Assembly: GCF_028368995.1 (NCBI RefSeq)
Contig: NZ_JAQNDL010000003.1
Coordinates: 512,001 to 576,000 of the forward strand
Origin: Nannocystis bainbridge
GTDB lineage: Bacteria > Myxococcota_A > Polyangia > Nannocystales > Nannocystaceae
Direction of reading: 5' to 3'
Length of the DNA: 64,000 nucleotides
Shown here: positions 17,642 through 57,548 of the stretch, in pieces
Layout: every line of letters starts with the position of its first letter
Numbering within the stretch: position 1 is the stretch's first letter
Notes under the pieces: model-generated
Database searches by the model: none
What the model was told of the DNA's origin: nothing
The model's input: only the letters and a program-made list of their open reading frames with translations
Made by a program: the position numbers and the translations under genes

Positions 17642-17661
17642 GCCCACGGAGTCGCCTCACA

Positions 17662-33306: not shown

Positions 33307-35286
33307 ATGCCGGCTCACGACCGCCCCGTCGCCCGCGAAGACCTCGCCGCCGCCCTCGACATCCTCGGCAAGCGGCACCTCGTGCTCTCGATCCACGACG
33401 TCTCGTTTCCCGGGCGCGACGACGAAGATCTCGGGCGCGGCTCGCCGTACAGCGGCGGCGGTCGGGCCTTCCTCGGCTTCGTGCGCCAGCTCGGGTTCAC
33501 CGGCGTGCAGCTCGGCCCGCAGGGACAGACCTCGCGCTACAACCCCTCGCCGTACGACGGCGCCCTGTTCGCCCGCGACATCCTCTCGATCGCCCTGCGC
33601 CCGCTCGCCGACGACCCCGCCTACGGCAACGTCCTCCCGCGCGGCGACCTCGACGACCTCCTGCGCGGACGGCCGGCGCGGCCTCGCCAGGGGATCACCG
33701 AACAGGCCGACTACGCCGCCGTGTGGCCGCGCCAGCTGGCCGCGCTCGCCAGCGCCTGGCACGGCTTCAGCCGTCGCCGCGCCGCCGGCGATCCGTCGGT
33801 CGCCGACCTCGCCGCCGCCTTCGACGGGTTCGTCGGCGAGCACGCCGGCTGGCTCGCGCCGGCCGGGCTGTACGAGGTCCTGTCGACCGCCTACCGGACC
33901 GGAGGGACATGGTCCGGAGCACATGGTCTTCGGGTCAGCTTCGACGGATCGCACTGGAGGAGCTGGCCGCGAGACCAGGAACTTTGGGTCAGCAAGAGCG
34001 CGCACGCGACGGCGCGGCGGGCCGGCCTGTCGCGGACCTACGCGCGCGAGCTCGAGTTCCTCGCCTTCTGCCAGCTGCTCGCAGCCCGCCAGCACGCCGC
34101 CCTGCGCGCCGAGCTGGCCGCGCGGCCGGGCCTGCCGGCCCTGCGGCTGTTCGGCGATCTCCAGGTGGGGATCTCCGTCGCCGACACCTGGGCGCTGCAC
34201 GACCTGTTCTTGCCCGGCTATGCGATGGGCGCGCCGCCGAGCCGCACCAACCCCGACGGCCAGCCGTGGGGCTACCCGGTGCTCGACCCGCGGCTCTACC
34301 ACGGGTCTGGCGGCCTCGGCCCGGCGCTGCGGCTGGTGGCCGCGCGCACCGACGCGATGCTGCGCGACTACGACGGCCTGCGCGTCGACCACCCGCACGG
34401 CCTGGTGTGCCCGTGGGTCTACCGCACCGACGAGCTCGACGCCTACCGCGCCGTCCAGGGCGGCGCGCGCCTGTTCGAATCGCCATGTCTCTCGGACCAT
34501 CCGCGCCTCGCCCCGTACGCGATCGCGCGCGAAGACCAGCTCGACCAGGCCCTGCCGCGCCACGCCGACCGGTGGGTCCGCGCGCTCGACGACGACCAGG
34601 TCACCCGCTACGGCGCCCAGCTCGACGTCGTCCTCGGCGCCGCGCAGGCGCACGGCCGCGCGCTCGAGGACGTGTTGTGCGAAGTCCTCAGCACCCAGCC
34701 CTACCCGCTGCAGCGGGTGCTCGAGGGCCACGGCCTGGGCCGCTTCCGGGTCACGCAAAAGGCCAACCTGACCGACCCGAACGACGTTTATCGCAGCGAG
34801 AACGCCCGCCCCGAGGACTGGGTGATGCTCGGCAACCACGACACCCCGCCGATCTGGCGCCTCGCGGCCTCATGGCACGGGACCCCGCTCGCAGCCGCGC
34901 AGGCCGAGTACTTGTGCGGACGTCTGGGGTCGCGCAGCGACGACGACCCATTGCGCGCGCGCATGCTCGCCGACCCCGCCGCCCTCGTGCACGCCAAGTT
35001 CGCCGACCTGCTGGTGTGCCCCGCGCGCCAAGTGGCCGTGTTCATGAGCGACTTGTTCGGCGCCCACGACATCTACAACGCCCCCGGCGTGGTCGATCCG
35101 GACAACTGGACCCTGCGCCTGCGACCCGGCTGCGAGGCCGCGTACTGGCCGGCAGCGGCCCGCGGAGCGGCGCTCGACCTCGGGTGGGCCCTGGCGATCG
35201 CGCTGCGGTCGCGCGGCCCCGCTTGCGCGTCCGAGCACGCCGAACTGATCGCCAGGCTCGAGCGCGGCCTCGGGCGGCCGTGCTAG
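33307..35286 (+). CDS. malQ: 4-alpha-glucanotransferase (GH77)
   Basis: SPY, FGDLQVG, GAPP...[25 protein letters not shown] lies 8 nt upstream of the ATG (leaderless-type). Confidence 0.85.
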
Positions 35287-35463
35287 CCTGCAAGCGGCTC
35301 CCCCGCCATGAAGCTCCCCGTGCAGGTGCAAGCGCCGCCTGAGCAGCCGCGCACCGAAGTCGGCCTGCCGCGCGCGGCCGGCGAACGTATCCGCGAGACC
35401 ATGGCGGTGGCGATCCAATTCGCCAACACGGCGATCCTGCCGGACCTCGCGCTGTCGCCGACG

Positions 35464-38400
35464 ATGAGCACGCCGCCCGAAGAAGGCGGCATGGAGCGAA
35501 CCGGTCCGCAGCCGCCGCCGGCGACTGCATTGACGGGCCAGGTCGGCCCGTACCGGATCTTGCGGCCGCTCGGGGCCGGCGGCATGGGGGCCGTGTACGA
35601 GGCGACCGATACGCGCACGGGCCAGCGCGTGGCCGTCAAGTCGCTGCTGCGCATGGGCCCGTCGGAGCTTCACCGCTTCAAGTACGAGTTCCGCAGCATG
35701 GCCGAGGTCGGTCACCCGAACCTCGTCACGCTCTACGAGCTGCACTCGCAGAGCGACCTGTGGCTCATCACCATGGAGTACGTCGGCGGCGTCGACCTGT
35801 GCACGGCGCTCCGCGCCCTCGTGCGCGCGCCCGACAGCGACCGCCGGCTGCGCGCGCTGATCCGCCAGCTCGTCCTCGGCGTCACCGCGCTGCATGAGCA
35901 GGGCCTGCTGCACCGCGACCTCAAGCCCTCGAACGTGCTCGTCACCTCGGGCGGCCGCGTCGTCATCCTCGACTTCGGCCTGGTCGCCGCGATCACTCGC
36001 ACCAACAGCAACGAGACCCCGGCGGGCACTCCTCTTTACATGTCGCCCGAGCAGTGCGCCGGCCAGCTCGCGACCCCCGCGAGCGACTGGTACGCCGTCG
36101 GCGTGATGCTCTACGAGGCGCTGACCGGCAAGCTGCCGTTCACCGGCGGCTACGCCCAGATCTTCCTCGCCAAGCAGTGCGAGGAGCCGGCCCCGCCGCG
36201 CGGCCCCGGCCTGCCCGACGACCTCGCGGCGCTGATCTCCGAGCTGCTGCGCCGCGACCCCGAGAAGCGCGCCTCCGGGGCCAAGCTGCTGGCGTGGTGC
36301 GGCGGCGCGGCGCTGTCGCCGGCGCCGGCGATGGCCAGCAGCTCGATCCTGTTCGGTCGCAAGGCCGAGCTCGACGCGCTCGACGAGGGCCTCGCCGCCG
36401 CCGCCCGCGGCCGCACCGCCTGCGTCTACCTGCGCGGTCAACCCGGCGTCGGCAAGACCGGCCTCGTCCACGGCTTCCTCGGCGCCCTCCAGCCACGCGG
36501 CGACGTCGTCGCCCTCACCGCTCGCTGCTACCAGCACGAGACCGTCCCCTTCAAGGCCTTCGACAGCCTCGTCGACGCCCTCGCCGATCACCTCGGCGCG
36601 CTCGAGCCGTTCGAACTCACCCCGCTGCTCGGCACCCACACCGGCGAGCTCGCGCGCGTGTTCCCGGTGCTGCAGCGCGTGTCCGCCGTGCGCGAGCTGG
36701 CCCAGAGCGCCCGCGCCGGCGTGTCCGACCAGGAGTCGCGGCGCAAGGCCTTCGCCGCGCTCAAGCGCCTGCTCGCCGCCCTGGCCGCGCGCCGCCGGCT
36801 GGTCCTGTTCCTCGACGATTTCCACTGGAGCGACGCCGACAGCGTGCGCCTGCTGTCCGAGCTGCTGGCCCCGCCCGAAGCCCCGGCGCTGCTGCTGGTC
36901 GTCGCCTATCACACCGAGTGGCCCGGCTCGCCGCTGGTCCGCCACGAGTTCGAGCGCCTGCAGCTACGCGTCCTGCCCGAGCTCCACGTCGCCCGCCTCG
37001 ACGTCGGCCGCCTCGACGAGCGCGACGCCCACGCCGCCGCGCGCGCCCTGCTGGTCGCCGCCGGCCTGCCGCCCGAGCCGTGGGCCGCCGCGATCGCCGA
37101 CGAGGCCCGCGGCGACTCCTACGTGCTCGAGGCCCTCGTCCACGAGCTCACCCACGCCGACCTCGCCACCCTCACGCCCGAGTCCCTGTCCTTCGAGACA
37201 TGTCTCCAGACGCGGGTCGACAACCTCTTCCCCGGCGACCGCGCCGCGCTCGAGCTGGTGGCCGCCGCCGGCGCCCCGCTGCCGACCGGCCTGCTCGCGC
37301 GCTCGCTCGGCGACCCTTCCGACATCCACGCCCGCCTGGCCCGCCTGCACGCCACCCGCCTGGTCCAGCTCGGCCGCCGCAACCACGCGCCCAGCGTCGA
37401 GCCGCTGCATGACCGCGGCCGCGCTCTGGTCGTGCGCGCCTTCTCGCCCGACCGCGCCCGCCAGCTGCACCGCCTGCTCGCCGACACCGCGCTGCAGCTC
37501 GGCCGCCCCGACGCCGAGTTCATGGCCCGTCACCTGTTCGCCGCCGGCGACCGCGAGCGCGCGGCCACCTACGCCGAGCGGGCCGGCAAGGCCGCCGCCG
37601 ACGCCCTCGCCTTCGCCCGCGCCGCCGAGCTGCATGAGCTGGCCCTGCGCTGCACCCCCGAGTCGTGGCCGCGCATGGTCGCCTGCGCCCGCGCCAAGGT
37701 CGACGCCGGCCTCGGCCTCGAGGCCGCGCCGATCTTCCTCCGCGCCGCCGAAAAGGCCCCGCCGGGCCAGCGCGCCGAGCTGCGCGTCCGCGCCTGCGAG
37801 CAGTACTTCGCGGTCGGCGAGACGGCCCGCGGCGAGGCTGTCCTCAAGGACCTGCTCGAAGGGACAGGCTTCTCCGACCCCGGCAGCGGCGAGGTCCTGG
37901 CCGCCGCCTTCCAGACCGAGGTCGCCGCGCTGCTCGGCGGCGCCGAGCCGGACATGTCTTACGGGACAGGTTCCGAACCGGCCGCGCAGTCCGACGCGCT
38001 GTGGGCCGCCGCCAAGGGCCTGTTCATCCACAGCCCGGTGCGCTCGGCCTACTTCGCCGCCCGCAGCGCCGCGATCGCCCGCGCCGTCGGCGACGAGGCC
38101 CGCCACGTCCGCGGCATGGTCATCGTCCGCGCGCTGTGGGCCGCCGCCGGCGACTCCGCTGCCTTGACCCGCCTGCGCGGCATCATCGACGACTACCTGC
38201 GCCGCCGCGACGATCCCTACATCGTCGGCCTCTCGGTCCTGTTCGACGGCATCTCCGCCGTCAGCCGCGGCCGCTGGGCCGACGCCATGCGCGACCTCGA
38301 GTTCGGCATCACCCACCTGCGCCAGCGCTGCACCAACATCGCCTGGGAGTGCAACTTCGGCGCCGTCATGCTCATGAGCTTGCTCGAGTCGCGCGGCGAG

Positions 38401-39138
38401 CTGCGGGCCATCGCCCTGCGCAGCGCCGTCATGAGCGAGCAGGCCCAGCAGACCGGCGACTCGATGGTCGAGTTCGTCGCCGCCTACTACAGCGCCCTCG
38501 TCCTGCTCGCCGCCGACGCCCCCTCCGACGCGCGCGAGGTCGTCGCCCGCGCCGTCCGCCTCGGCAACGTCGCCGCCGGTTCGGCCGCCGGCCTGCGCGC
38601 CTCGATGATTGAGGCCCTCTGCGCCCAGTACGCCGGCGAGATCGCCATCGCCTGGACCGAGGTCGAGCGCGTCACCGCCCTGCTCGCTGCCGGCGGCGCC
38701 GCCTTCACCAAGAACCAGCGCGCCAACTTCATCAGTCTCCACGGACAGGTCGCATTGGCCATGGCCGAACGGTCAGGTACCGGCGACGCCCGCGAGCCCT
38801 ACCTGGCCGCCGCCGCCGCCGACGCCGACGCCCTCAAGCAGATCGGCAACGCCGGCGCGCTCGCCTCCGCCGCCCTCCTCGACGCCGCCGCCCTGGCCCT
38901 CCGCGCCGCCGCCGCCCCCACCGTCGTCGAGGCCCTGCACGCCGCCGCCGAGGCCTTCGACGCCGCCGACATGCCGCTCGCCGCCGCCGCCGCCCGCCTC
39001 CGCCTCGGCACCTGGATCGGCGGATCCGAAGGCGAGCAGATGATCGCCCGCAGCGAAGCCTTCATGCGCCTGCAAGCGATCGCCTGCCCGGCCCGGTGGG
39101 TCATCACCAACACCCCCGGCCTGTCCCCGCCGCTGTGA
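35464..39138 (+). CDS. Ser/Thr protein kinase with AAA ATPase and helical repeat region
   Basis: [18 protein letters not shown], and Walker A GQPGVGKT; start uncertain (35308-35491). Confidence 0.92.
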
Positions 39139-39216
39139 CATCGGCAAGGACATGTCCCGAAGGACATGTCACCGTTCGCTTGGCAACCTCGCGCGCCGGC
39201 GATATCGTTGAACGCG

Positions 39217-40752
39217 ATGTCTCCCGCCGAAGCCACGCCGTCGTCGGCGCTGCCCGCCCGCCCCGAGGCGCAGAGTCTTCGCGTCGATGCGCTCGTCCAC
39301 GACATCCTGTCCGGCCGGGTCCGCATCCCGGAAGTTCCCTCGAGTTGGGAGCCGAGCGACGTCCTCGCCCTGCTCGACAGCATGGATCGCGGCTACCCGA
39401 TCGGCATCCTGCTCCTGTGGCAGCGGCCCGCGCCGCCCAAACGGCTCGTCTACGGCAGCGTCACGCTCGACGTCCCTGCCTGCGCCGACGCCTTGTGGGT
39501 CGTCGACGGCCAACAGCGCCTCCTCGCGCTGCTGCGGGTCTTCGCGGGCGCCGGTCGTCCCACGGAGTCGTACGCGGTGTCCTACGACCTCGAACGAGCC
39601 ACATTCGAGCGGACGCACGGCGACTTCGACCCGCACGCCCTCCCGCTCACCGAGGTCCTCGATCCCGCGCGCCTGAACGCCTGGCTGAGCGCGCGCTCGG
39701 TGAGCAGCCGCCACCGACAGGCCGCGCTTCACCTCGGCGAGCGGCTGCGCGAATACACGATCCCGGCATACGTGCTCGGCACCCCTGACGAGACCGTCGT
39801 GTATGACCTCTACCGCCGCGTCAATGCTCCACACCGACGCCTCGCCCACGAAGCCGTGTTCGCAGCGCTCCATCGACGCGGCACCTCGGGGCCCCAGACA
39901 CTCCGAGAGGTCGCCGAAGGTCTGGCGGACCTCGACTTCGGCCCACTCGAAGAACATGTCTTGAAGGGCATGTTCTTCGAGCCATCTCATTCATTGAATG
40001 CGATCGAAGGCGTCATCCGTGCGACCGTCCAGTTCTTGCGGGAAGACGCCGGAATCCCTCACGTCTCGCTCGTCCCGGTCCCGTCGTCCCTCTCCGTCCT
40101 GTCCCGCGTCCTCGCTCGCTTCCCCGCCGCCCATCCGCGCACCCGCGAGCTCCTGTCGCGCTGGCTCTGGCGCGACGCGCTCGCGGGCGCCCGTCACGGT
40201 GACCCCTCGCGGCAGCCAGAACTGAGGGCCATCGAGACCGAAGACGAATACTCGGCCGTCGGGAGCCTGTTGCGCTGCGCCGCGCCTCACCCGGCCGCGG
40301 ACATCTTCCAGGATGGCGTCTTCGACCCCGGCTCGCCGGCTTCGCGGGTTCACCTGCTCGCGCTCCTCGACCTGGGCCCCCGTCACCTCGCCGATGGCAC
40401 GCCCGTCACTCCGGCTCGACCGGCCGACGCCTGCGCCTACCAGCCGCTGATTCGTCCCATCGTCCCCAATCTGCCCGAGGGCGCTCACGAGCTCGACAAC
40501 CTCATATTGCATCCCTCAGGGCTGGACGGGCTCGTCTCCCTCATCATCGCCTGCGAGTCGAGGGAGTTGCTGGCGACCCATGCCATTCCGCTGCCCGCCC
40601 GGGACGCGCTGCAGGCAGGGCACCTCGCGCAGTTCCTCCAGCTCCGCCACGCCGACATCCACACGCAGCTCCGTCGCTTCATCGACCGGCGAGCCCAGTG
40701 GCACGAGGCCGACACTCCGCCCGTCGAGGCGCTCCGGCTCGGAGGCGACTGA
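39217..40752 (+). CDS. DUF262 (ParB/GmrS-like) domain protein
   Basis: LLDSMDRGYPIGILLLW and VVDGQQRL. Confidence 0.85.
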   Translation: MSPAEATPSSALPARPEAQSLRVDALVHDILSGRVRIPEVPSSWEPSDVLALLDSMDRGYPIGILLLWQRPAPPKRLVYGSVTLDVPACADALWVVDGQQRLLALLRVFAGAGRPTESYAVSYDLERATFERTHGDFDPHALPLTEVLDPARLNAWLSARSVSSRHRQAALHLGERLREYTIPAYVLGTPDETVVYDLYRRVNAPHRRLAHEAVFAALHRRGTSGPQTLREVAEGLADLDFGPLEEHVLKGMFFEPSHSLNAIEGVIRATVQFLREDAGIPHVSLVPVPSSLSVLSRVLARFPAAHPRTRELLSRWLWRDALAGARHGDPSRQPELRAIETEDEYSAVGSLLRCAAPHPAADIFQDGVFDPGSPASRVHLLALLDLGPRHLADGTPVTPARPADACAYQPLIRPIVPNLPEGAHELDNLILHPSGLDGLVSLIIACESRELLATHAIPLPARDALQAGHLAQFLQLRHADIHTQLRRFIDRRAQWHEADTPPVEALRLGGD

Positions 40753-40754
40753 TC

Positions 40755-41987
40755 ATGCGTCTGGCCATCCTGCTCGGTGACATCGACGTCGCCCGCCTCG
40801 TGCGACGCGATGACGGCACCGTCGAGCTCACGTTCCTCGCGGACTACCGCGTGTCGTACCCGCGGCCGGTGCTCGGCCTCCACTACCTCGACAAACTGAC
40901 GCGTCCCCTCCCCTTCACGTCCGGCCTCCCGTCGTTCTTCACCAATCTCTTGCCCGAAGCCGACGGTCCGCTCCGACGCCTCATCGTCCACGCCGCCGGG
41001 ATCCGCGAACATCAGGAGCTCCGCCTCCTCGCCCATCTCGGCGAAGATCTGCCCGGCGCCGTCATTGTCCGCCCGCTCGACAGCTTCGAGGATCACGAGG
41101 CACCGAGCCCCGAGCTCGGCACCACGCCGCCACCGGCCACTGGCAACAAGCTGCGGTTCTCGCTCGCCGGCGTCCAGCTCAAGTATTCGATGGTCCGCCA
41201 CGGCAAGGGGCTCACCTTGCCGGCCAGCGGCCGAGGCGGCGACTGGATCGTCAAGCTGCCCGACGCCGAGTACGAGCGCGTGCCCGAGAACGAGTACGCG
41301 GTCATGAGCTGGGCGCGCGAGAGCGGCATCGAAGTCCCCGAGTTCGACCTCGTCCCTCACGCCGACCTCGTCGGCCTGCCGGACCGCCGCATCGTCCGGG
41401 ACGAGCTCTGCTTCGCCATCCGCCGCTTCGACCGTCTCCCCGGCGACCGCGTCCACATCGAAGATTTCGCCCAGGTCAACGGCGTCCATCCTTTCCGCAA
41501 GTACGACGACGAGCGTCCCGTCGCGGCGCGCCTCAACTTCGAGACGCTGGCCAACCAGATCCTCACCTTTTGCGGTGAAGCCGACCTGCGCCAATTCATC
41601 CTTCGCCTCGTCTTCACCGTCCTGTCCGGCAACGCCGACGCCCACCTCAAGAACTGGTCGCTCATCTATCCTGATGGCCGCACCCCACGTCTGAGCCCCG
41701 CCTACGACCAGGTGGCGACCATCGCCTACATCCCCTCGGATGAACTCGCCCTACCGTTCGCAAACTCTCTATCCTTCGAGACGGCCACTGTCGACGCCTT
41801 CCGCCGCCTCGCCCGCAAGCTCCGCCGCGACCCCGACGAGATGGAGCGATGGGTCACCGAGGACGTGGAGCGCATCATGGACGCCTGGACCACCCACGCT
41901 GCCGGCCTCCCGCTCCCCCTGGAAGCCCGCTTCGCCCTCGACCAGCACCACAAGCGTCTGCGCGCCACAGGAACCTTGCTCAAGTAA
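40755..41987 (+). CDS. hipA: HipA-family kinase toxin
   Basis: FFTNLLPE, SLAGVQLK, ENEY, RRFDR, GNADAHLKNWS, LSPAYD. Confidence 0.93.
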   Translation: MRLAILLGDIDVARLVRRDDGTVELTFLADYRVSYPRPVLGLHYLDKLTRPLPFTSGLPSFFTNLLPEADGPLRRLIVHAAGIREHQELRLLAHLGEDLPGAVIVRPLDSFEDHEAPSPELGTTPPPATGNKLRFSLAGVQLKYSMVRHGKGLTLPASGRGGDWIVKLPDAEYERVPENEYAVMSWARESGIEVPEFDLVPHADLVGLPDRRIVRDELCFAIRRFDRLPGDRVHIEDFAQVNGVHPFRKYDDERPVAARLNFETLANQILTFCGEADLRQFILRLVFTVLSGNADAHLKNWSLIYPDGRTPRLSPAYDQVATIAYIPSDELALPFANSLSFETATVDAFRRLARKLRRDPDEMERWVTEDVERIMDAWTTHAAGLPLPLEARFALDQHHKRLRATGTLLK

Positions 41988-42035
41988 GTTGCCCCGAGGG
42001 ACATGCCCGCTCGGACATGCCCCTCGCGCCAGCCC

Positions 42036-42785
42036 TCACAGCACGAACGGGATCACCGCTTTGCGGCTCGCCGGGTACTCGGGGAACTTCTGCTTGTACC
42101 ACTTGTGGTGCGCCACCGCCCGCGGCACCAGGTTGGCCGCCGTGAACACCGCGAACGACAGCCCGGCGACCGACCAGGTGGCGATCGCCCAGCCCGTCCA
42201 CTCGAGCAGCTCGCCGAAGTAGTTCGGGCACGAGATCAGCTCGTAGAGCCCGCCGCGGGGAATTTTGTAGCCCTTCTCGCCCGGCTTGCGCAGGCTGGCC
42301 AGGACCGCGTCGGCGCGGCGGTTGATGCGGTAGCCGAGCACGAACAGCCCGACCCCGATCCACAGCCGCGGGTCCAGCAGCCACGACAGCTCGTAGCGGC
42401 CGAACTCGCCGATCCAGCGCGCGTTCACGTAGGCGTTGACGAGGTTGAACACGAACCCCATCGCCACCACCGTGACCGGCGTGTGGCCGCCCGGGCGGAT
42501 CTTCAGCGGGAAGATGAACGCCCGCTGGATGTAGTGCGACTGCCACAGCACCAGCAGCAGCAGCGGCACCAGGCTCCACGCACCGGCGAAGAACACCGCC
42601 AGAAACCACAGCACCGACGGCGACTCCATCACCATCCACGCCAGCCGCGTGTCCATCTGCGGCCCCCACCCCTCGCGCGCGTGGCGACCGTACGGCGCGA
42701 CGATGAACAGCAGCGCCGGCACCGTCAGCGCGGCGACGAGGAACACTCCCTGGACCAGCAGCGTGTGAAACTCGAGCTCCGACAT
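42036..42785 (-). CDS. 3-oxo-5-alpha-steroid 4-dehydrogenase (steroid 5-alpha-reductase) family
   Basis: APYGRH, AWMVMESP, YKIPRGGLYELISCPNYFGE, HHKWY. Confidence 0.9.
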   Translation of the reverse strand: MSELEFHTLLVQGVFLVAALTVPALLFIVAPYGRHAREGWGPQMDTRLAWMVMESPSVLWFLAVFFAGAWSLVPLLLLVLWQSHYIQRAFIFPLKIRPGGHTPVTVVAMGFVFNLVNAYVNARWIGEFGRYELSWLLDPRLWIGVGLFVLGYRINRRADAVLASLRKPGEKGYKIPRGGLYELISCPNYFGELLEWTGWAIATWSVAGLSFAVFTAANLVPRAVAHHKWYKQKFPEYPASRKAVIPFVL

Positions 42786-43103: not shown

Positions 43104-44153
43104 TCACTGCAGCGCCCGCCGCAGCGCCCCGGCGATCTCGCTCAACGCCGGCCGCGCGTTCGAGAGCCCGCCCGACGCGCTGACGTGCCCGTGGAACATC
43201 CCGCGGTGGCACGCGAACGCGACGGGCACCCCGGCCGCCTCGAGCTTGCCCGCGAACGCCTCGCCCTCGTCGCGCAGCGGATCGAACCCGGCGGTGAACA
43301 CCGCGGCCGGCGGCGCCCCGGCCACGTCCGCGAACCATGGCGACGCCCGCGGGTCGCGCCCGTCCTCGGCGCCGCGCAGGTAGTGGCCCATGAACCACTC
43401 CATCGTCTCCTTCTCGAGGAAGAACCCCTTGCCGAGGCTCTCGATCGACGGGAACGACATCGTCAGGTCGACCGCCGGATAGATGAGCAGCTGAAACACC
43501 GGCCGCACCGCGTCGCCGCGGGTCTCGAGCCCGACCACCGCCGACAGGTTGCCGCCCGCGCTGTCGCCCGCCACCGCGATCCGCTTCGGATCGATCCCGA
43601 GCGCGCCGGCGCTGGCGACCACATGACGGAACGCCGCCACCGCGTCGTCGGCCGCCGCCGGGAACCGATGCTCGGGCGCCAGGCGGTAGTCGACGGCGAT
43701 GACGACGCAGCGGGCCTCGTCGGCGAGGATCCGGCACACGGGATCATGCGAGTCGAGGCCGCCGACGACGAACCCGCCGCCGTGAAAATACACCGTCGCC
43801 GGCGCCAGCGCGGCCAGCCCCCGCGGCCGGTAGATCCGCACCGCGAGCTCACCACCTGGCCCCTGGAACCTGTCCTCAGAGACAGTCTCCAGGGTCGGCG
43901 CCAGCGGGGCCAGCATCGCCGTGTTGATGTCCATCTCCCGCCGGGCCCGCGCGACCGAGAGCTCGTGGAAATGCGGCCGCCGCATCCGCCGCTGCATCGC
44001 CAGCATGTGCTGCACCTGCGGGTCGAGCGTGTGCCCGTCGCGCTCGACCGGCCCGCCGCCCGCCAGCCTCCGCTGCAACGAGTCCGGCAGCGACAGCAGC
44101 AGCCGCGCAGCGAACGCCTGGAACCTGTGAGACACGGACAGCGGCTTCCCCAT
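43104..44153 (-). CDS. HSL-family esterase/lipase
   Basis: HGGG, GDSAGG, FDPLRDEG. Confidence 0.93.
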   Translation of the reverse strand: MGKPLSVSHRFQAFAARLLLSLPDSLQRRLAGGGPVERDGHTLDPQVQHMLAMQRRMRRPHFHELSVARARREMDINTAMLAPLAPTLETVSEDRFQGPGGELAVRIYRPRGLAALAPATVYFHGGGFVVGGLDSHDPVCRILADEARCVVIAVDYRLAPEHRFPAAADDAVAAFRHVVASAGALGIDPKRIAVAGDSAGGNLSAVVGLETRGDAVRPVFQLLIYPAVDLTMSFPSIESLGKGFFLEKETMEWFMGHYLRGAEDGRDPRASPWFADVAGAPPAAVFTAGFDPLRDEGEAFAGKLEAAGVPVAFACHRGMFHGHVSASGGLSNARPALSEIAGALRRALQ

Positions 44154-44660: not shown

Positions 44661-44712
44661 GTGCATGTCCCCGAGAACATGCCTCTTAGAGCATGCCCCA
44701 AACGACATGTCC
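44661..44712. repeat. 14-bp phased CATG array
   Basis: CATG at 44664, 44678, 44692 and 44706. Confidence 0.92.
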
Positions 44713-44732
44713 TGAAGTTTCTCCTAAAAAAC

Positions 44733-47045
<2,313 letters not shown>

Positions 47046-47334: not shown

Positions 47335-47414
47335 GGGCATGTCGCTTCGAACATGCCCCCGAGGACATGCCCGAAGCGACATGCCCCTGCGGACATGCCC
47401 CGCGAGACAGCCTC
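47335..47414. repeat. 14-bp phased CATG array (longest)
   Basis: CATG at 47338, 47352, 47366, 47380 and 47394; CAGC at 47408. Confidence 0.95.
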
Positions 47415-47419
47415 GCGCC

Positions 47420-50020: not shown

Positions 50021-50026
50021 CCTTTC

Positions 50027-50078
50027 GGACCTGCCCCATGCGACCTGTCCTCCAAAACATGTCCATTGGCGCAGGTCC
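50027..50078. repeat. 14-bp phased array
   Basis: Cores at 50030 (CCTG), 50044 (CCTG), 50058 (CATG) and 50072 (CAGG). Confidence 0.85.
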
Positions 50079-50200
50079 GAGCGCTGCCTCGCCTGTCCCG
50101 ACGCCCACGCCGCCCGGGACCTATCCCGCCAACCTGTCCCTCGGGACATCTCGCTCCCCCTCTATCCACACCCCCCTCGCCGCCTGACCGCGGAGACCCT

Positions 50201-50965: not shown

Positions 50966-51159
50966 GCGCGGCTCTCACGACCGCGCGCCCTCGCATCACC
51001 AGCGCCGCAGCCGCTCGTGACGCGCAGTCGCGACGCCGCGCCGGCGCGGCGTGCATCGGCGCTCACTCGCGCCTTGCGGGCCTGTCACGACGATCTCGCC
51101 GCGATGTCCGATCGGCGTCGCCTGGATCTCCCGATCGGTTTCCGATAGCCTGCGCGATC

Positions 51160-52374
51160 ATGCTCGCTCGCCCTGCGGCCCTGCTCTCGACCTTCGTCCT
51201 CCTCCTCGGCTGCGGCGGCGACGATCGCCCTGGCGGCGACACCGAGACCACCGGCCTCACCTCGGGCGACCCGGGCAGCGACGCCGCGACCGCCGCACCG
51301 ACCACCACCGACGCGACCTCCGGGACAGGAACTTCAGGACAGGACCCTACGGGCATGTCCTCCGAGACAGACGACGTCACCACCGCCGATCCGCCGGTGA
51401 CCACCACTGAAGATCCGCCCGACACCACCGGCGGCCCGGGCCCCGCCCCTGGCGCCCTGTGCGAGCCGGTCCCGAAGTGTGACGCCGCCCCGCCGACCAT
51501 CCCTGGCCAGGGCGAGCCGGAGGGTGAGTACTCGCGCGGGCGCGACATGTTCTACGTCGAGGGCGAGGAGCAGTGGGTGATCGCCAAGTTCACCAAGTGG
51601 GGCTTCCCCGCCGACAAGGACATCGAGGGCAGCGCCGTCCACCTGTTCCTCGACCGCGGCTGCGCCGGCGAGTGGGAGGACCTCGGCGTCGCCATCACCA
51701 CCGTCGAGGGCGAGCACGCGCCGGTCCAGGGCGTCGACGACTCCGGCGGCCGCGTCTATTACAAGATCTCCCAGTCCGACCAGCTTGAGCCGGGCCGTCA
51801 CCGCGTGCACGGCGTCGTCGAGGAGTTCTGGGACACCGTCGACATCACCATCGACGTCGTCCCGGCCGGCGCCCCGATCTTCGTCAGCGACGTCGACGGC
51901 ACCCTCACCACCAGCGAGAGCGAGGAGGCCTGGGACTTCTTGCTCGGCGACATCCCCGAGGCCAACCCGTTCGCCGCCGAGGCGCTGAGCCTGCTCGCGT
52001 CGAAGGGTTATCGCCCCATGTACTTGACCGCCCGGCCCGAGTGGCTCGACCGGCGCACGCGCGAGTTCGTGGCCCTGCGCGGCTTCCCCGCCGGGATCAT
52101 TCACACCACGCTCACGTACACCGGCGGCATGGGCGACACCGCCGCCGCCTACAAGACCGGAGAATTTCAGCTACTCAAAGACAAGGGCCTCGTCCCGACC
52201 TGGCTGTTCGGCAACAAGGACAGCGACGCCGAGGCCTTCGAGTCGACCATGATCCCGACCGACCAGCGCGTGCTGTTCCAGTTCACCGACGCCGTCCACG
52301 GCGCCCGGCGGATCGAGAGCTACCAGGAGCTCCTCGCCGAATTCGAAGCCCTGCCCGACCTGTGCGGCCGATGA
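51160..52374 (+). CDS. Lipoprotein with LNS2/PITP-type HAD phosphatase domain
   Basis: LLGC lipobox; SDVDGTLT; YLTARP; FGNKDSD. Confidence 0.8.
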   Translation: MLARPAALLSTFVLLLGCGGDDRPGGDTETTGLTSGDPGSDAATAAPTTTDATSGTGTSGQDPTGMSSETDDVTTADPPVTTTEDPPDTTGGPGPAPGALCEPVPKCDAAPPTIPGQGEPEGEYSRGRDMFYVEGEEQWVIAKFTKWGFPADKDIEGSAVHLFLDRGCAGEWEDLGVAITTVEGEHAPVQGVDDSGGRVYYKISQSDQLEPGRHRVHGVVEEFWDTVDITIDVVPAGAPIFVSDVDGTLTTSESEEAWDFLLGDIPEANPFAAEALSLLASKGYRPMYLTARPEWLDRRTREFVALRGFPAGIIHTTLTYTGGMGDTAAAYKTGEFQLLKDKGLVPTWLFGNKDSDAEAFESTMIPTDQRVLFQFTDAVHGARRIESYQELLAEFEALPDLCGR

Positions 52375-52880: not shown

Positions 52881-52886
52881 CCCGAA

Positions 52887-52952
52887 GCGCATGTCCCCGG
52901 CGCCATGTTCTCCAGGACATGTTTTTAAGAACATGCCCCCGGAGACATGTTC
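52887..52952. repeat. 14-bp phased CATG array
   Basis: CATG at 52890, 52904, 52918, 52932 and 52946. Confidence 0.93.
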
Positions 52953-52973
52953 ATCCACGGTTCCGCAATTATC

Positions 52974-53006
52974 GAGACCGCCGGGCCTCGCGGCCGCGGC
53001 GGTCTC
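52974..53006 (-). terminator. 10-bp stem hairpin downstream of the micro-ORF
   Basis: GAGACCGCCG (52974-52983) pairs with CGGCGGTCTC (52997-53006). Confidence 0.5.
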
Positions 53007-53024
53007 GCGCGGGCCCTCGCCCGC

Positions 53025-53072
53025 CTAGCGGTCGAGGAACAGCCCCGCCTGGATCTTCGTCTTCTTCTTCAT
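53025..53072 (-). CDS. 15-aa micropeptide MKKKTKIQAGLFLDR
   Basis: GGAGGTG SD 8 nt upstream, TAGCGT -10-like element and a downstream hairpin. Confidence 0.5.
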   Translation of the reverse strand: MKKKTKIQAGLFLDR

Positions 53073-53178
53073 CGCCGCGGCACCTCCCGGCTTCACGCTA
53101 CCACGGCCCTCCAGCCGGCCTCGCGCCGCGGTTTCGCGCCCCGCTCACCGGCCCCGCGCGTGCTATCGTGAGCGCCTC

Positions 53179-55548
53179 GTGCAGCTCCGCGCCCGCGTCG
53201 CGCTCCTCTTCGCTGCCGTCCTCGCCTGTCACGACGACGCGGCCGAGGCCGACCCGCACGCCGTCGACTACGGCGACGCCTGCCGCGAGTCCGACTGCGC
53301 CCCCGAGATCCCGATGACCGGCCAGGTCTCGCCCGCCTTCGTCGAGCTCGACATCGCCATGCGCCAGTTCGTCAAGGCCCGCTGCGTCGGCGCCGGCGTG
53401 CTCAGCGTGTCGCTCCGCGGCCGTCGCGTCTACAAGCGCGGCTTCGGGCGCATGGCGGGCCCGGCCGCCGCCGACATGCCCGGGTGCAACGACGGCCCCA
53501 TGGCCGACGTCGATCGCTTCCAGCCCGAGGCCACGTTCGTCCAGCCCGACACCCCGCTGCGCCTCGGCAGCGTCTCCAAGTTCCTGACCGCCGCCATGGC
53601 CCGCCGGCTGATCGGCGCCCGCATCGAGCAACATGGCCTTCAGGACATGTACCCGACGCCGTCCCACGCGCGCATCGCCGACCCCGCCCTCGGTCTGCTC
53701 CCGCCCGACCTGCTCGCCGCCTTCGCCGGCGCCCGCTGCGGCCCCGTCACCGTCGACGACGTCGCCGCCGGCTGCACCCGCAGCTGCGGCGACGCCGGCC
53801 CCGACGTGCGCTGGCGCGACGTCACCGTCGGCGACCTGCTCGCCCACACCAGCGGCCTGCCCGGCAAGGCCGCCAACTGGGGCGCCCACGTCGTCCCCAA
53901 CTTCGGCGCCCTGCGCGGCTTCACCGGCGAGGCCGACTGGGCCGCCGAGGACGCCGCCCTGCGCGCTCGCTACCCCGAGTTCGCCGGCGACATCGAAGCC
54001 ACGCGGACCTGGCTGCAGCAGACCCTCCCGGCCCGCCACGTCTATTTCGTCAGCCGCTACGATCGCCGCGACACCGACCCGCAGCGCGAGTGGCTCGGCG
54101 TCTTCCTCACCCGCTGCCTCGTGCGCGACCCCGCGGGCGCCAGCGACGACGGCGCGTTCAAGGGCCCCTACTCCAACACCAACTACGCCGTCCTCGACAG
54201 CGTCGTCGCCCATCTGTCCGCCAGCGGCCGCTACGCCGCCGAGGCCGGCCACCCCGAGCAGCACGCCGACTCGGCCCTGCGCGAGTTCCTCGCCGACCTC
54301 GAGCTGGGGGGCGGCGTCGCCAGCGTCGAGGCCATCTTCCGCACCCCCGCGGCCCAGGGCTCACCTGCCCTTTCGGACATCCCCGAGCTGCGCGCCTGGG
54401 ACGGCCGCACCTACCGCCCGCTCGACTGGGAGGACAAGCGGCCCTACTGCGTGTGGCAGGGCGATCGCTGCGACTTCTCGCCCTGGCTCGCGCGCAAGTC
54501 GACCCGCCCGCGCTGGGACTTCGCCGGCCTGCCCGCGCCCCTGGGCGTCCCGCTCGCCGGCCAGGCGCTCACCGCCGGCACCGGCGCGCTGTCGGCCGAG
54601 GCGCCCGCGCTGCTGCGGATCGTCCACCGCTACGCCCTCGGCGACGACGACATCCTGCAAGGTCGTCCGCGCGAGAGCTGCGGCGAGGCCTGCAATTTCG
54701 TCATGGACAAGGCCGGCTCGCTCGGCGGCGGTCGGGCCTACGCCATCAGCCTGCCCGGCGGGACCCGGGAAGTCACCCTGCCCGGCCTCGCGCCCGACGG
54801 CCGCCTCTCCGACCTCGGCCCGCGCCTGCGCCTCGCCATCACCGAGCCCGCCGACGTCGACGTCGTCGTCATGGTCGGCCAGAGTGACGACGGCCGTGAC
54901 GCCGGCAGCGTGGTCTACAGCGACCTCGACGAGATGATCCGCTTCGGCCTCTCGCGCGTCGACTGGGCCGCCGTCGAGGCCGAGCTGGCGGCTCAGGCCA
55001 TCCGCGTGGTCGGCCTCGCGATCGACGATCGCGGCGACGCCAACTACTGGTGCGCCGACGATCGGCTCACCGTGCGCCGCGGCGACCCGGCCGGCGTGTC
55101 GAACGGCGAGCTGCTCAGCCGCGACCCTTACCGCCTGCCCGCCACCCGGATCGGCGTCGACGTCGTCGCCGTCGCCCGCGCCCTCGATCGCCCCGGCGAC
55201 CAGGTCGTCGCCTGGTATGACGACGGCCACGTCGGTCGCGGCGATCCCCACGACCTCCGCGGCGCCGCGCGGCCCGAGCCCTACCGCCCCGCCCCCGGCC
55301 GGACCTATCGCGACCTCGCCGCCGTCGTCGTCACCCCGGCCGGCGAGGCGATCGCCCTCTATCACGACGGCGCCGCCAGCTTCGGCACCCTCACCGACCT
55401 CGCCGCCCACGGTCTCGGGCGCTTCGAGGGCCGCGACCCCGTCAGCGTCGACGCGCTCGCCCTCGCCCCTGACGGCCGCCTGTTCGTCCTGCACCGCGAC
55501 GGCAGCGTCGACATCACCGACCTCGCCGCCTTCGCGCGCGACGAGTGA
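53179..55548 (+). CDS. Serine hydrolase (beta-lactamase family) lipoprotein
   Basis: VLAC lipobox; SVSK, LLAHTSGL, YSN. Confidence 0.8.
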   Translation: MQLRARVALLFAAVLACHDDAAEADPHAVDYGDACRESDCAPEIPMTGQVSPAFVELDIAMRQFVKARCVGAGVLSVSLRGRRVYKRGFGRMAGPAAADMPGCNDGPMADVDRFQPEATFVQPDTPLRLGSVSKFLTAAMARRLIGARIEQHGLQDMYPTPSHARIADPALGLLPPDLLAAFAGARCGPVTVDDVAAGCTRSCGDAGPDVRWRDVTVGDLLAHTSGLPGKAANWGAHVVPNFGALRGFTGEADWAAEDAALRARYPEFAGDIEATRTWLQQTLPARHVYFVSRYDRRDTDPQREWLGVFLTRCLVRDPAGASDDGAFKGPYSNTNYAVLDSVVAHLSASGRYAAEAGHPEQHADSALREFLADLELGGGVASVEAIFRTPAAQGSPALSDIPELRAWDGRTYRPLDWEDKRPYCVWQGDRCDFSPWLARKSTRPRWDFAGLPAPLGVPLAGQALTAGTGALSAEAPALLRIVHRYALGDDDILQGRPRESCGEACNFVMDKAGSLGGGRAYAISLPGGTREVTLPGLAPDGRLSDLGPRLRLAITEPADVDVVVMVGQSDDGRDAGSVVYSDLDEMIRFGLSRVDWAAVEAELAAQAIRVVGLAIDDRGDANYWCADDRLTVRRGDPAGVSNGELLSRDPYRLPATRIGVDVVAVARALDRPGDQVVAWYDDGHVGRGDPHDLRGAARPEPYRPAPGRTYRDLAAVVVTPAGEAIALYHDGAASFGTLTDLAAHGLGRFEGRDPVSVDALALAPDGRLFVLHRDGSVDITDLAAFARDE

Positions 55549-55931
55549 GCCGCGACCGCGATCACAGGCGACGGCTCAGTGGCGACCTCCTGTCGGCCCG
55601 CGCACGCCCGCGCGCCGCTCCGCCTCGCATCACCCGGCCCACGCCTTCGACTCCGTCCCTTACGAGCCCGCGTTCGCTGTTTCCGGCCGCGCCCGCGGCA
55701 AAATCACCGCCCTCGCAATTTTTCCTCCCGCCGCGGCGACTCCACGCCAGGACGGTGACGCTCATCATGCCCAGCCCTGCGAACAGTCCTTCGACCGCCT
55801 CACCCCATGACATGGTTGCCGTGGCGACCCTCGCACCTGGCGGCGCCGCGACCCCTCGACCTGTCCCGGGGGGCGCCCTATGCTCGGAGAGCCGGCCCGC
55901 CGCCGGGTGTTTGCATAGGGATGACGCCACC

Positions 55932-57548
55932 ATGACTCGCCGCACGCTCGCCGCCGTGTTCTCCTCCCGTCCCGAGCTGCGCCCTGCTCGCGCCCTGCTC
56001 TCCCCGACCTGGCTGGGCGCCCTCGCCGTCCTCGGCGTCAACGACCACCTGCTCAAGGGCGCCGGCATCCTGCCCGGCGGTCTCACCGGCAAGCTCAGCG
56101 ACTTCGCCGGCATGATCGTCGCCCCCGCCCTGCTCGCCGCCCTGCTCGGCGTCCGCAGCCGCCGCGGCCTGCTCCACTGTCACATCGCCGTCGGCCTGGT
56201 GTTCGCCCTCATCAACCTCTCGCCCGCCTGCGCCGACGCGTGGAGCTGGCTGATGGGCCTCGTCGGCTTCCCCTGGACCATCACCGTCGACCCGACCGAC
56301 CTGGTCGCCCTCCCGGCCCTCGCGCTCGGCTGGCGCGTCCTCGTCCCGGCCATGCGGCCCGCCGCTCGACCTGTCTCTTCGGTCAGCCTCTCTCGCTGGC
56401 CCTCGCGCCCCGAGTTCGGCGCCGCCGCGCTCGGCTCGCTGCTGTGCGTCGCCACCAGCGACACCGGCGACGACGAAGGCGGCTGGGACACCGAGGGCGA
56501 CCTGCTCTACCAGGACTTCCAGGGCGACGTGTACCTGCACAACAGTGACATCGACCGCGAGCTCGTCGTCCGCGTCCGCGACCTCCGCGAGGGCGTCGAG
56601 ATCGACTGCTTCAACGCCCAGGGCAAGCCCGGCGTGCTGTTCTCCGACGCCCTCTTCGGCGAGGGCCAGACCTGGTCGATCCCCCCCGGCGCCAACGTCC
56701 CCGTCCGCGGCGACCTCGACCGCGTCTCCCGCGACTGCTACGCCGTCCTCGTCACCAGCAACACCATCGAGCCGACCGTCCTGTTCTGGAACAGCGGTGA
56801 CATCGGGCTCGACTGGATCCCCGGCCAGCACGCCGACAGCGGCGAGTACCTCGCCGGCGCCGTCATCCTCACCGCCGACGAGGACGGCCGGGCCACGATC
56901 ACCGACTCGCGGCAGCCGATCGTCTTCCCCCAGCGCGACCCCGCCGACGACGCCTACATCCCCGGCGACGACGCCGGCCGCGTCGCGTGGAGCAAGCCTC
57001 CGATCGGCGTCCACCGGATCGCCGACCTCGCGCTCGGCAGCGACGGCTGCGCCGCCTTCGACCTCGACGCTGGCCTGCCCCGCTTCTACTTCTGCAGCCC
57101 GCTGACCGAGCTCCCGTTCGCGGCCGGCCAGTACCTCTCGGTCGTCGACCAGGGCGACCGCCTCCTGCTCGAGCGCGCCCCCGATCCCGGCGACCCGACC
57201 CCGTTCGGCGCGGTCGAGGTCGTCGCCTCGCGCGGCAACCACCTCGTGACCATCAGCGGCGCCACTCTGGCCGCCAAGCCGGAGTTCGACGTCGAGCTCG
57301 GCCCCGAGCTCACCTGCGGCACCGTCGCCCAGCCGCAGACCTTCAGCGCCTCGTTCGGCGGCCAGATCGTCCAGTTCCGCCCCGGCGAGACCGTCGAGCT
57401 CGACGACGGCGCCAGCCACCTCGTCCTCCACGGCGTCCACGCCGAGCGGCGCATCATCCTCGCCCCCGACTGCGCCGAGGGCCCCGACGCGCTCGGCGAC
57501 GACCTCGAGCTCGTCTACGTGCGGACCGCCTCGCAACAGCAGCCCTGA
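55932..57548 (+). CDS. Membrane protein with acidic extracellular domain
   Basis: NDHLLK...TGKLSDFAG...DPTDL TM module followed by an acidic beta-rich region. Confidence 0.75.
   Translation: MTRRTLAAVFSSRPELRPARALLSPTWLGALAVLGVNDHLLKGAGILPGGLTGKLSDFAGMIVAPALLAALLGVRSRRGLLHCHIAVGLVFALINLSPACADAWSWLMGLVGFPWTITVDPTDLVALPALALGWRVLVPAMRPAARPVSSVSLSRWPSRPEFGAAALGSLLCVATSDTGDDEGGWDTEGDLLYQDFQGDVYLHNSDIDRELVVRVRDLREGVEIDCFNAQGKPGVLFSDALFGEGQTWSIPPGANVPVRGDLDRVSRDCYAVLVTSNTIEPTVLFWNSGDIGLDWIPGQHADSGEYLAGAVILTADEDGRATITDSRQPIVFPQRDPADDAYIPGDDAGRVAWSKPPIGVHRIADLALGSDGCAAFDLDAGLPRFYFCSPLTELPFAAGQYLSVVDQGDRLLLERAPDPGDPTPFGAVEVVASRGNHLVTISGATLAAKPEFDVELGPELTCGTVAQPQTFSASFGGQIVQFRPGETVELDDGASHLVLHGVHAERRIILAPDCAEGPDALGDDLELVYVRTASQQQP

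Follow-up and report, generated by a model that had tools for sequence, protein, structure and literature searches.

Short repeats that recur throughout a bacterial genome are known in several forms. Repetitive extragenic palindromes (REPs) and bacterial interspersed mosaic elements (BIMEs) are short, G+C-rich hairpin palindromes of high copy number, placed after stop codons or between convergent genes, often clustered and with compensation between the arms. Tandem operators, such as the met-boxes of MetJ and the iterons of omega/ParR-type ribbon-helix-helix proteins, are arrays bound cooperatively by dimeric repressors; short units, two to five or more, stand head to tail at a fixed spacing with free positions between them, and the array is the functional entity. 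Template switching at quasi-palindromes makes or perfects inverted repeats in place, with multiple substitutions and no change in length, and does so in genes as well. The uptake signal sequences (USS) of the Pasteurellaceae and the DNA uptake sequences (DUS) of the Neisseriaceae are present in hundreds to thousands of copies, many of them in genes through the choice of codon and residue, and pairs of DUS also occur at terminator positions. For uptake sequences in coding regions, one report describes tolerated positions, effects of reading frame and a link between the frames used and preferred codons (Findlay and Redfield, 2009; PMC2817400). Here we analyse a stretch of 64,000 nucleotides from Nannocystis bainbridge (G000:C2:512001-576000, hereafter the window; the source genome, G000, has 11.05 Mb and 71.5% G+C), in which an earlier note, made from the letters alone, had seen one 14-bp code written inside protein-coding genes. 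We consider it probable that these in-gene patches are in-frame members of a lineage-specific family of phased palindromes, built in place and recognised as phased arrays.

The unit of this family, defined from intergenic arrays, is a 10-bp palindrome with the consensus GGACATGTCC (GGR-CATG-YCC) plus four variable spacer bases, and the arrays hold 2-12 copies of the palindrome in a strict 14-bp register with free 4-nt spacers. The likeness to REPs and BIMEs extends to copy number, hairpins, placement, clustering and arm compensation. The Nannocystis palindromes, however, stand head to tail at 14 bp, so that each can pair with either neighbour; they lack the GTAG/CGTC tag that a report on these elements gives as a REP feature (PMC3733652); a search of 11 genomes of the genus gave no Y1/RAYT transposase; and REPs are by definition extragenic, whereas about a quarter of the Nannocystis arrays lie inside genes, by substitution. 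With uptake sequences the family shares high copy number, accommodation in genes through codons and residues, a preference for poorly conserved positions, absence from distant homologues and an effect of frame on the version used. Uptake sequences are, in contrast, single asymmetric motifs, whereas only phased palindrome pairs and arrays are enriched in genes here, and the Nannocystis motif uses rare codons against the bias whereas the uptake-sequence report ties the frames to preferred codons (PMC2817400). Tandem operators offer the closest likeness in architecture, but they are few per genome and promoter- or centromere-like, whereas there are about 2,650 of these arrays, some of them in coding sequence. 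What sets the family apart is the strict 14-bp palindrome register and the unusually clear coding footprint; genome-wide short repeats with REP-like and uptake-sequence-like properties are known. No published description of the repeat was found in the full-text literature searched, in which coverage of subscription journals is poor, and Rfam gave no matches at gathering thresholds within the window.

Register of the arrays and their enrichment in genes

The register is apparent from simple distances. Within the window, 31 pairs of CATG words are separated by 14 bp, compared with 0-3 pairs at each of 13, 15, 16 and 17 bp; the whole genome has 3,736 pairs at 14 bp, and echoes at 28, 42, 56 and 70, against roughly 70-90 pairs at neighbouring distances other than multiples of 3. 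Units were scored with a 10-bp weight matrix derived from the intergenic arrays, 6 bits being the threshold for a convincing unit. Among units scoring at least 8, intergenic pairs at distances 14, 13 and 15 total 3,033, 24 and 12 respectively, and the corresponding counts in coding sequence (CDS) are 409, 0 and 18. Tandem units in a fixed register with free spacers are what characterises cooperative tandem operator arrays. The spacers are very diverse (the commonest 4-mer accounts for 102 of 2,746), and across arrays they are no more complementary than random pairs, matching at about 1.1 of 4 positions where random pairs match at 1.08; self-palindromic spacers alone are slightly raised.

The matrix defines 2,649 arrays in the source genome, of which 1,710 are intergenic, 316 overlap a gene end and 623 lie deep in genes. 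Most of the family has the extragenic 3′ location of REPs and the in-gene patches do not. Genes of the whole genome (8,105, 84% coding) were taken from a crude caller based on codon likelihood and on G+C content at third codon positions (GC3), whilst those of the window were verified with Pfam and by orthologue alignments that run through the patches. Searched on both strands, the six large Nannocystis genomes hold 1,342-2,344 copies of a three-unit pattern; five fragmentary congeners hold 1-54, and 30 genomes from other genera hold 0-3, with 0-2 matches for a reversed-pattern control. These five array-poor congeners are far more divergent, their malQ and helicase proteins being 50-67% identical. 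The array family is real, and it is specific to the lineage of large-genome Nannocystis.

The earlier note proposed that selection acts on a DNA motif within these coding sequences, a claim that would fall if in-gene pairs were no more frequent than in genes with shuffled synonymous codons. They are far more frequent. In the window's 15 genes between 33.0 and 57.6 kb there are 10 phased pairs, whereas 500 synonymous-codon shuffles gave 0.58±0.61 and never as many as 10; distances 13, 16 and 17 gave no pairs. Deep in the coding sequences of the whole genome, at least 90 nt from the start and at least 30 nt from the stop, there are 754 matrix pairs, against 53.4±8.5 in 10 shuffles (14-fold) and 3-19 at control distances of 11, 13, 16 and 17; exact CATG pairs number 374 against 58.9±5.9 in 20 shuffles (6-fold), and 5-mers such as TGTCC recur at distance 14 in 166 cases against 2.5 at control distances. 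Isolated units are not enriched in coding sequence, with 5,258 hits against 5,546 in total in the synonymous shuffles, and phased pairs alone are in excess; the palindromic unit is not the single, oriented, over-represented motif that defines an uptake sequence.

Pure chance is refuted for the phenomenon as a whole by these shuffles and control distances. Roughly 50-60 phased pairs genome-wide are expected from amino-acid and codon content, and chance, or an over-reading of loose CATG-like words, stands for four weak patches only; as an account of the rest it is very improbable. The note had listed 13 patches in the window. Nine of them hold at least two phased units of 6 bits or more; each of the other four has one convincing unit, with neighbouring 'cores' of 4.0 bits or less, and is individually indistinguishable from chance. 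Several third 'cores' (33936, 34498, 39983, 43855 and 51368) have no match at all. Exact CATG pairs 14 bp apart are confined to three of the 13 (malQ 33908/33922, DUF262 39955/39969 and the hydrolase 53632/53646), the remaining listed cores being CCTG, CAGG or CATC variants. The genes concerned gave Pfam matches to GH77, Pkinase and AAA_16, GmrSD_N, Abhydrolase_3, a Suv3-type helicase, LNS2 and Beta-lactamase. The first nine patches below are those with phased units, with the matrix score of each unit; the last four have one convincing unit each.

malQ_a, 33905-33928, in the 4-alpha-glucanotransferase gene (33307-35286, plus strand): units GGACATGGTC and GCACATGGTC, scores 11.6 and 8.2
kin_b, 37848-37871, in the Ser/Thr kinase-AAA gene (35308-39138, plus strand): degenerate units GGACCTGCTC and GGACAGGCTT, scores 7.4 and 6.2
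kin_c, 37950-37973, in the kinase gene: units GGACATGTCT and GGACAGGTTC, scores 15.1 and 9.6
kin_d, 38743-38766, in the kinase gene: units GGACAGGTCG and GGCCATGGCC, scores 7.4 and 7.9
DUF262, 39952-39975, in the GmrSD-like gene (39208-40752, plus strand) of a strain-specific island: units GAACATGTCT and GGGCATGTTC, scores 14.6 and 13.6
hel_a, 45382-45419, in the Suv3-like helicase gene (44733-47045, minus strand): three phased units, scores 7.4, 16.3 and 7.0
hel_b, 46719-46742, in the conserved DEXQ-box domain of the helicase: two units, scores 6.9 and 15.1
LNS2, 51337-51360, in the N-terminal linker of the LNS2-domain protein gene (51160-52374, plus strand): units GGACAGGACC and GGGCATGTCC, scores 6.4 and 14.1
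serhyd_a, 53629-53652, in the beta-lactamase-fold hydrolase gene (53179-55548, plus strand): units CAACATGGCC and GGACATGTAC, scores 8.9 and 13.2
malQ_b, 34481-34490, in the 4-alpha-glucanotransferase gene: one convincing unit (listed as 34470-98)
kin_a, 37196-37205, in the kinase gene: one convincing unit (listed as 37185/99)
Esterase, 43866-43875: one convincing unit (listed as 43855-83)
serhyd_b, 54375-54384, in the hydrolase gene: one convincing unit (listed as 54364/78)

The codon usage of the patches is as the note had described it, with A/T-ending codons in genes whose codons otherwise almost all end in G or C; the malQ text at the first listed site reads GGA GGG ACA TGG TCC GGA GCA CAT GGT CTT. 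For the 412 of 619 in-CDS chains with a good coding signal in the same frame on both sides, GC3 is 0.656 in the patches against 0.948 in the flanks, and for chains seeded on CATG (243 of 328) the values are 0.65 and 0.95. A peptide repeat, which the note had already discounted, is ruled out by the occupation of all three frames and the different peptides that these encode: G-H-V, D-M-S and G-T-G/C. The version of the core used depends on the frame. The exact CATG is found in 78% of units in the D-M-S frame (G GAC ATG TCC) and 67% of those in the G-H-V frame (GGA CAT GTC), whilst in the Thr-Cys frame (GG ACA TGT CC) 44% are CATG and 43% CAGG, giving Gly instead of Cys. This is a coding compromise, in which the most awkward frame is relaxed to CAGG.

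The further suggestion of a density requirement was not supported. Gaps between arrays are overdispersed (coefficient of variation 1.5, with a largest gap of 119-159 kb), and in-CDS arrays do not fill them: the median distance to the nearest non-CDS array is 2,134 nt, against 2,184 nt for random CDS positions (p=0.55), and in-gene arrays avoid the large array-free stretches. The density of in-CDS chains climbs with gene length, from 2.5 to about 10 per 100 kb, and chains are enriched in mid-gene. These are weak hints of a density requirement, which linker architecture explains equally well. No association of in-gene arrays with the gene 3′ end was found. By its in-gene units, the region studied here ranks fourth among the 20-kb stretches of the genome. 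In-gene arrays are densest in two adjacent open reading frames (ORFs) without Pfam matches at G000:C3:1012872-1016830 (L049:2872-6830), whose chains have 7, 5 and 4 units, alongside several two-unit chains, with some 42-bp super-repeats; the first of these ORFs has a weak coding score and may not be a gene. Stretches of 27-119 kb without any array, including G000:C1:1138247-1257520 and C2:1846396-1933166, are mostly of lower G+C content (0.68-0.70, ranging to 0.72, against 0.715 for the genome), and are possibly recently acquired or otherwise atypical DNA.

Origin and age of the in-gene copies

The clearest view of how an in-gene copy arose comes from hel_b. Eighteen genomes share the helicase peptide RGHVFTDRL. 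Its codons are GGA CAT GTC TTY ACG GAC AGG TTG (CTG in G001) in the five array-rich genomes that were examined, whilst 13 array-poor genomes use GGG/GGC CAC GTG TTC ACC GAC CGC CTG or similar; 7 of 8 codons for identical residues differ synonymously from the outgroup, creating the motif in a peptide conserved across genera. In kin_d, likewise, the peptide GQVALA is conserved in outgroup genome G008, and 4 of 7 identical residues are synonymously recoded, with rare codons including GGA, GCA and TTG. Synonymous changes that create the motif are what the earlier note had expected from orthologues, and hel_b and kin_d show them. Other patches lie in less constrained protein. Compared with 13 array-poor orthologues, hel_a has no indel and shows residue changes in a variable loop; kin_b is gap-free relative to G008, with the residue changed at 6 of 9 codons; the kin_c segment is hypervariable even between congeners, and the LNS2 linker is hypervariable and indel-rich in outgroups. 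The malQ_a patch sits in a 16-residue segment that is missing from G008 and is present in a CAGG version in G004.

For 26 in-CDS chains from three regions, 11 are spanned by an array-poor orthologue, 8 of them without gaps. Of the 18 outgroup units that align, only one has a score of at least 6. Amongst 51 codons for identical residues, 29 differ synonymously, and GC3 is 34/51 in the array-rich genome against 46/51 in the outgroup. Paralogues give a similar picture on a larger scale: 106 of 243 patches are spanned, identity to the paralogue is 0.28 in patches against 0.36 in control windows, and at identical residues within patches the array gene has a GC3 of 0.658 and the paralogue one of 0.871, compared with 0.956 for both outside the patches. 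Judged from these alignments, most of the in-gene copies that can be aligned were built in place by point substitution and not inserted, and the substitutions are synonymous in conserved protein and residue-changing in variable loops and linkers. Build-up by substitution at weakly constrained coding positions is likewise a property of DNA uptake sequences.

An origin from inserted or captured DNA, in which a mobile or expandable element landed in frame or intergenic arrays were swallowed by fusion or read-through, nevertheless has observations in its favour. Patches are enriched opposite gaps in the paralogue (gap fraction 0.11 against 0.048 in controls; 10% against 3.4% mostly opposite a gap), malQ_a lies in the segment missing from G008, and the longest chains (7, 5, 5 and one of the two of 4 units) have no outgroup counterpart, with some of them in 42-bp super-repeats. 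In-gene chains are denser in long genes, intergenic unit number varies from 2 to 9 between species, and near-identical 8-unit arrays show expansion by slippage. Set against this, the motif is absent in outgroups from the eight gap-free chains, hel_b falls in a conserved domain with its peptide unchanged, about 90% of paralogue-spanned patches are not mainly gaps, the 11 genomes of the genus yielded no Y1/RAYT transposase, and array positions are stable. We regard such an origin as quite unlikely for the in-gene copies. A repeat derived from a miniature inverted-repeat transposable element or another insertion is not supported, as alignable in-gene chains are mostly gap-free and intergenic sites are shared in 9-11 of 12 cases and gained in 0-1 of 26.

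The in-gene copies predate the split of the six species and occupy the same codon positions in all. All 12 listed patches with congener copies are retained there, at 88-92% DNA identity between the congeners and the source genome; malQ_a and kin_b are kept in five congeners, whilst the hydrolase patches have a copy in one only (for serhyd_a, the single syntenic copy is in G005) and the GmrSD-like gene is absent from five. Each congener retains 33-36 of 46 in-CDS units. One of the genomes compared, G007, has 4 of 4 orthologues examined (malQ, kinase, helicase and LNS2) split into two or three frames, and it is listed as 80% complete; the splits look like the result of indel errors in the assembly and not like pseudogenes.

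Constraint was examined at synonymous third positions of codons with an invariant residue, in 47 genes aligned across the six species. Within the core of the motif 21 of 32 A/T sites are invariant, against 190 of 715 outside it, and the corresponding figures for G/C sites are 61 of 64 and 9,478 of 12,822. Ancestral sites, shared by the two most distant species, are retained in the other four at 82 of 87 core positions against 9,668 of 11,372 outside (p=0.0016 for G/C and p=0.12 for A/T). With moderate confidence, core synonymous sites appear to change less than other synonymous sites.

The shuffles, the orthologues, the GC3 of paralogues and the conserved core synonymous sites all point to the nucleotide sequence as the level on which a force acts and support the view that a DNA- or RNA-level force, not a protein-level one, shapes the in-gene patches. 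The note had called this force selection. A nucleotide-level force is supported, and it may be either selection or a biased mutational or conversion drive. The main alternative to a protein reader of the arrays is accordingly a non-adaptive molecular drive: biased mutation or repair would write the pattern into sequence that already resembles it, protein selection would leave the tolerable cases, and the in-gene arrays would have no function. Candidates would be template switching at quasi-palindromes, where one unit templates its neighbour across the 4-nt loop, or a bias in uptake and recombination, although we know of no competence bias in Nannocystis.

Several of the observations suit a drive of this kind. 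The patches arise without indels through clusters of substitutions; they favour less conserved residues, variable linkers and ORFs without a family; and they lack regular spacing, gap-filling and compensation and are mostly unfolded. At the site of hel_a the outgroup helicase already held CAGGT words 42 bp apart, which could have served as seeds for the later array. The lower G+C content of array-free stretches fits slow accumulation in resident DNA, template switching would yield compensation between intergenic neighbours without selection, and there is a parallel in the report on uptake sequences in coding regions (PMC2817400). On the other side, conservation of the core synonymous sites needs either a continuing drive or selection, the in-gene arrays are without the compensation expected from fresh template switching, and homologous conversion would be expected to need longer tracts of identity than 10 bp between unrelated spacers. 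Coding sequence shows no enrichment of single units, whereas for uptake sequences one motif suffices. Template switching is, moreover, a general and sequence-unspecific process, which does not explain the use of one 10-bp word, its spread through the genus or the missing in-gene compensation. A drive is a possible explanation of the in-gene arrays, but one that we think rather unlikely.

Intergenic arrays and hairpin formation

Outside genes, arrays occupy 38% of 1,450 convergent intergenic regions, 12% of 4,386 tandem regions and 8.6% of 1,472 divergent ones, so that they are rarest where promoters would place a repressor's operator. In tandem regions the median distance to the upstream stop is 48 nt and that to the next start is 191 nt, and the largest arrays span convergent gaps from stop to stop. 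The family is found mainly within a few dozen bases downstream of stop codons, most of all where genes converge. The arrays of the window outside the deep coding sequence are as follows.

47335-47400: intergenic reference array between two gene ends, 5 units, RNA fold z score -7.0
29481-29509, 30671/85, 31367-31423, 32219/33 and 39151/65: further intergenic or gene-edge arrays, by CATG positions
42002/16, 44199/213, 44664-44706, 52890-52946 and 62497-62553: further intergenic or gene-edge arrays, by CATG positions

Period-14 tandem arrays found in the window include 41999-42026, 47351-47417 and 62495-62557.

Predicted RNA folds are stable (z < -2) for all five multi-unit intergenic arrays that were folded, the four besides the reference array having z scores of -2.1 to -4.5, and for 4 of 6 two-unit arrays, 9 of 11 in total. 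The usual fold has two adjacent units as the arms and the spacer as a 4-nt loop. Short imperfect palindromes with a stable hairpin, as in REPs and BIMEs, are therefore a property of the intergenic arrays but not of the in-gene patches, of which 1 of 9 folded has z < -2. The exception is DUF262, with a near-perfect 16-bp stem (z -7.1); hel_b (z -1.7) and kin_c (z -1.4) adopt the predicted shape with the spacer as loop, whilst malQ_a (z -0.5) and hel_a (z -0.3, with a fourth weak unit at 45368-45377 scoring 4.5) do not reach these values.

The units of intergenic arrays also vary together. The state that follows an asymmetric unit is its reverse complement in 739 cases, against 444 expected, and the same state in 460 cases, against 446 expected (p=7e-16); Watson-Crick pairs between neighbouring intergenic units number 3,571, against 3,356±30 when partners are shuffled (z=7.2). 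On the sense strand of tandem intergenic arrays, G·U-type mismatches outnumber A·C-type mismatches by 982 to 667, an asymmetry that is partly compositional, as shuffled partners give 1,044 and 756. Mutual information between single columns of the units gives almost no signal, and a dismissal of hairpins on that ground is overturned for the intergenic arrays by the state test and the partner shuffle. In-gene arrays behave differently, with 43 compensating neighbours against 49 expected, 54 direct repeats, and symmetric G·U and A·C mismatches deep in coding sequence (265 and 269).

We suggest that outside genes adjacent units pair as hairpins with the spacer as loop, and that they would act as REP-like elements at gene 3′ ends without a REP-type transposase. 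The intergenic arrays do not belong to the REP family, although they function in the manner of REP-type 3′ hairpins. The transposase domain PF01797 was matched in none of the 11 genomes of the genus and in 17 of the 41 genomes searched overall, whilst the control was positive in 6 of 14 known genomes. As a lead to CATG methylation, a D12-class methyltransferase (PF02086) is uninformative, since 18 of 21 genomes searched have it, both array-rich and array-poor. Intrinsic terminators were considered and rejected: hairpins are present, but the intergenic arrays have no U tract, and a scan of 29.0-48.9 kb gave 4 sites against 3.3±1.7 in shuffled sequence, one of which overlaps an array.

A function in RNA could be extended to the genes, where the patches would serve as mRNA structures, as sites for RNases or RNA-binding proteins, or as rare-codon pauses at domain boundaries. 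The intergenic arrays do behave as transcribed hairpins in their 3′ location, folding, compensation and excess of G·U over A·C; some in-gene pairs fold, DUF262 most strongly; and in-gene chains lie in mid-gene and are made of rare codons. However, 8 of 9 folded in-gene patches have z > -2, the deep-CDS arrays show neither compensation nor mismatch asymmetry, hairpins tolerate loops of 3-8 nt and yet distances of 13 and 15 are at background, and a generic rare-codon pause would not need this motif. An RNA-level function within genes seems improbable to us. Retention of the in-gene arrays is unlikely to be by hairpin formation, because they show no compensation and no G·U/A·C asymmetry and mostly do not fold.

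The positions of intergenic arrays are stable over the same span of species as those in genes. Among 38 orthologous intergenic regions in six species, 12 hold an array in the source genome, and 9-11 of these 12 are shared by each congener; of the other 26 regions, 0-1 hold an array in each congener. The number of units does vary between species, from 2 to 9. Two 8-unit intergenic arrays, at G000:C3:1054304-1054411 and C3:1085840-1085947, have near-identical units within each; one consists wholly of the CAGG variant (GGACAGGYCC) and the other of repeated GGTCATGYCCCTGA, and both look like recent slippage expansions of single units.

The convergent gap at 39139-42035 of the window, from the kinase gene to the gene at 42036-42785, is a hotspot for cargo. 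In the source genome it holds a 2.85-kb strain-specific island that includes the GmrSD-like (DUF262) gene and one for a HipA-like kinase; a different insert, of about 1.4 kb, is present in G001 and G003, whilst G005, G007 and G010 have no more than 105-121 bp there. All six genomes have phased arrays on either side of the variable middle, each beside the stop codon of its gene. The DUF262 array (39942-39985) lies after GmrSD_N, the only Pfam domain found in that ORF, whose GC3 is just 0.83, and the gene may be a fusion or the bearer of a recent array. The window also contains tandem repeats unrelated to the 14-bp family, one of 21 bp, perfect, with 3.8 copies (15325-15403) and one of 48 bp with 2.2 copies and 91% matches (61940-62046), and 2-kb stretches of low G+C content at 2001-4000 (0.60) and 16001-18000 (0.625), against about 0.72 elsewhere.

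Possible recognition of the arrays

Taking the two habitats together, the entity that is recognised would be a phased pair or array of duplex units and not a single motif, and within genes it would not be a hairpin. A putative reader would be a sequence-specific protein that binds as one dimer per palindrome and contacts its neighbour at 14 bp, with the in-gene arrays as weaker sites; we put this forward tentatively, as an idea a little more likely to fail than to hold. A stronger version, in which a dedicated factor reads 14-bp-phased GGACATGTCC arrays as marks of gene 3′ ends and more than 600 extra coding sites are under purifying selection, is doubtful, though possible. Under that version successive dimers would sit 120° apart on the helix, convergent-transcription junctions would be especially marked, and the in-gene sites would have come from synonymous and conservative substitutions.

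A number of points weigh against in-frame members built in place and recognised as duplex arrays. The genome-wide counts rest on the crude gene caller, and 207 of 619 in-CDS chains fail the flank-quality filter. In the outgroup comparison 3 of the 11 spanned chains have 1-3 gap columns, with malQ_a and LNS2 in indel-rich segments; 15 of the 26 have no alignable outgroup, including all of those with at least 5 units and one of the two 4-unit chains, and these lie largely in ORFs without a Pfam family. It is possible that the long in-gene arrays reflect insertion, expansion or doubtful gene calls. The constraint test rests on 87 core sites in related species, with three of the four regions picked for their richness in in-CDS units in the source genome; it is not significant for A/T sites alone, and for the window on its own p=0.20. 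Finally, the compensation and the excess of G·U over A·C outside genes point to an RNA or single-stranded DNA structure as the functional state there, and a duplex-binding protein is not needed to explain the intergenic arrays.

Whichever force is responsible, the arrays are a quantifiable case of non-coding information overriding a codon bias that ranks with the strongest in bacteria (GC3 about 0.95) at hundreds of conserved sites, in which the conflict between coding and the DNA or RNA level can be measured site by site. The in-gene arrays can be synonymously recoded and array-poor sister lineages exist, which makes the family a test bed for selection versus drive, a matter long debated for uptake sequences. 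In practice, the arrays mark gene ends for annotation and flag resident as opposed to recently acquired DNA, and the patches of rare codons and hairpins matter for heterologous expression. Myxobacteria have giant genomes and are valued for their natural products, and their transcription termination and chromosome organisation are poorly understood; a three-unit, 14-bp-phased array provides a defined bait for the reader of a genus-specific 3′-end element. If a dedicated factor does read these arrays, they would constitute a new sequence-specified chromatin, roadblock or topology system, and not a variant of REPs or uptake sequences.

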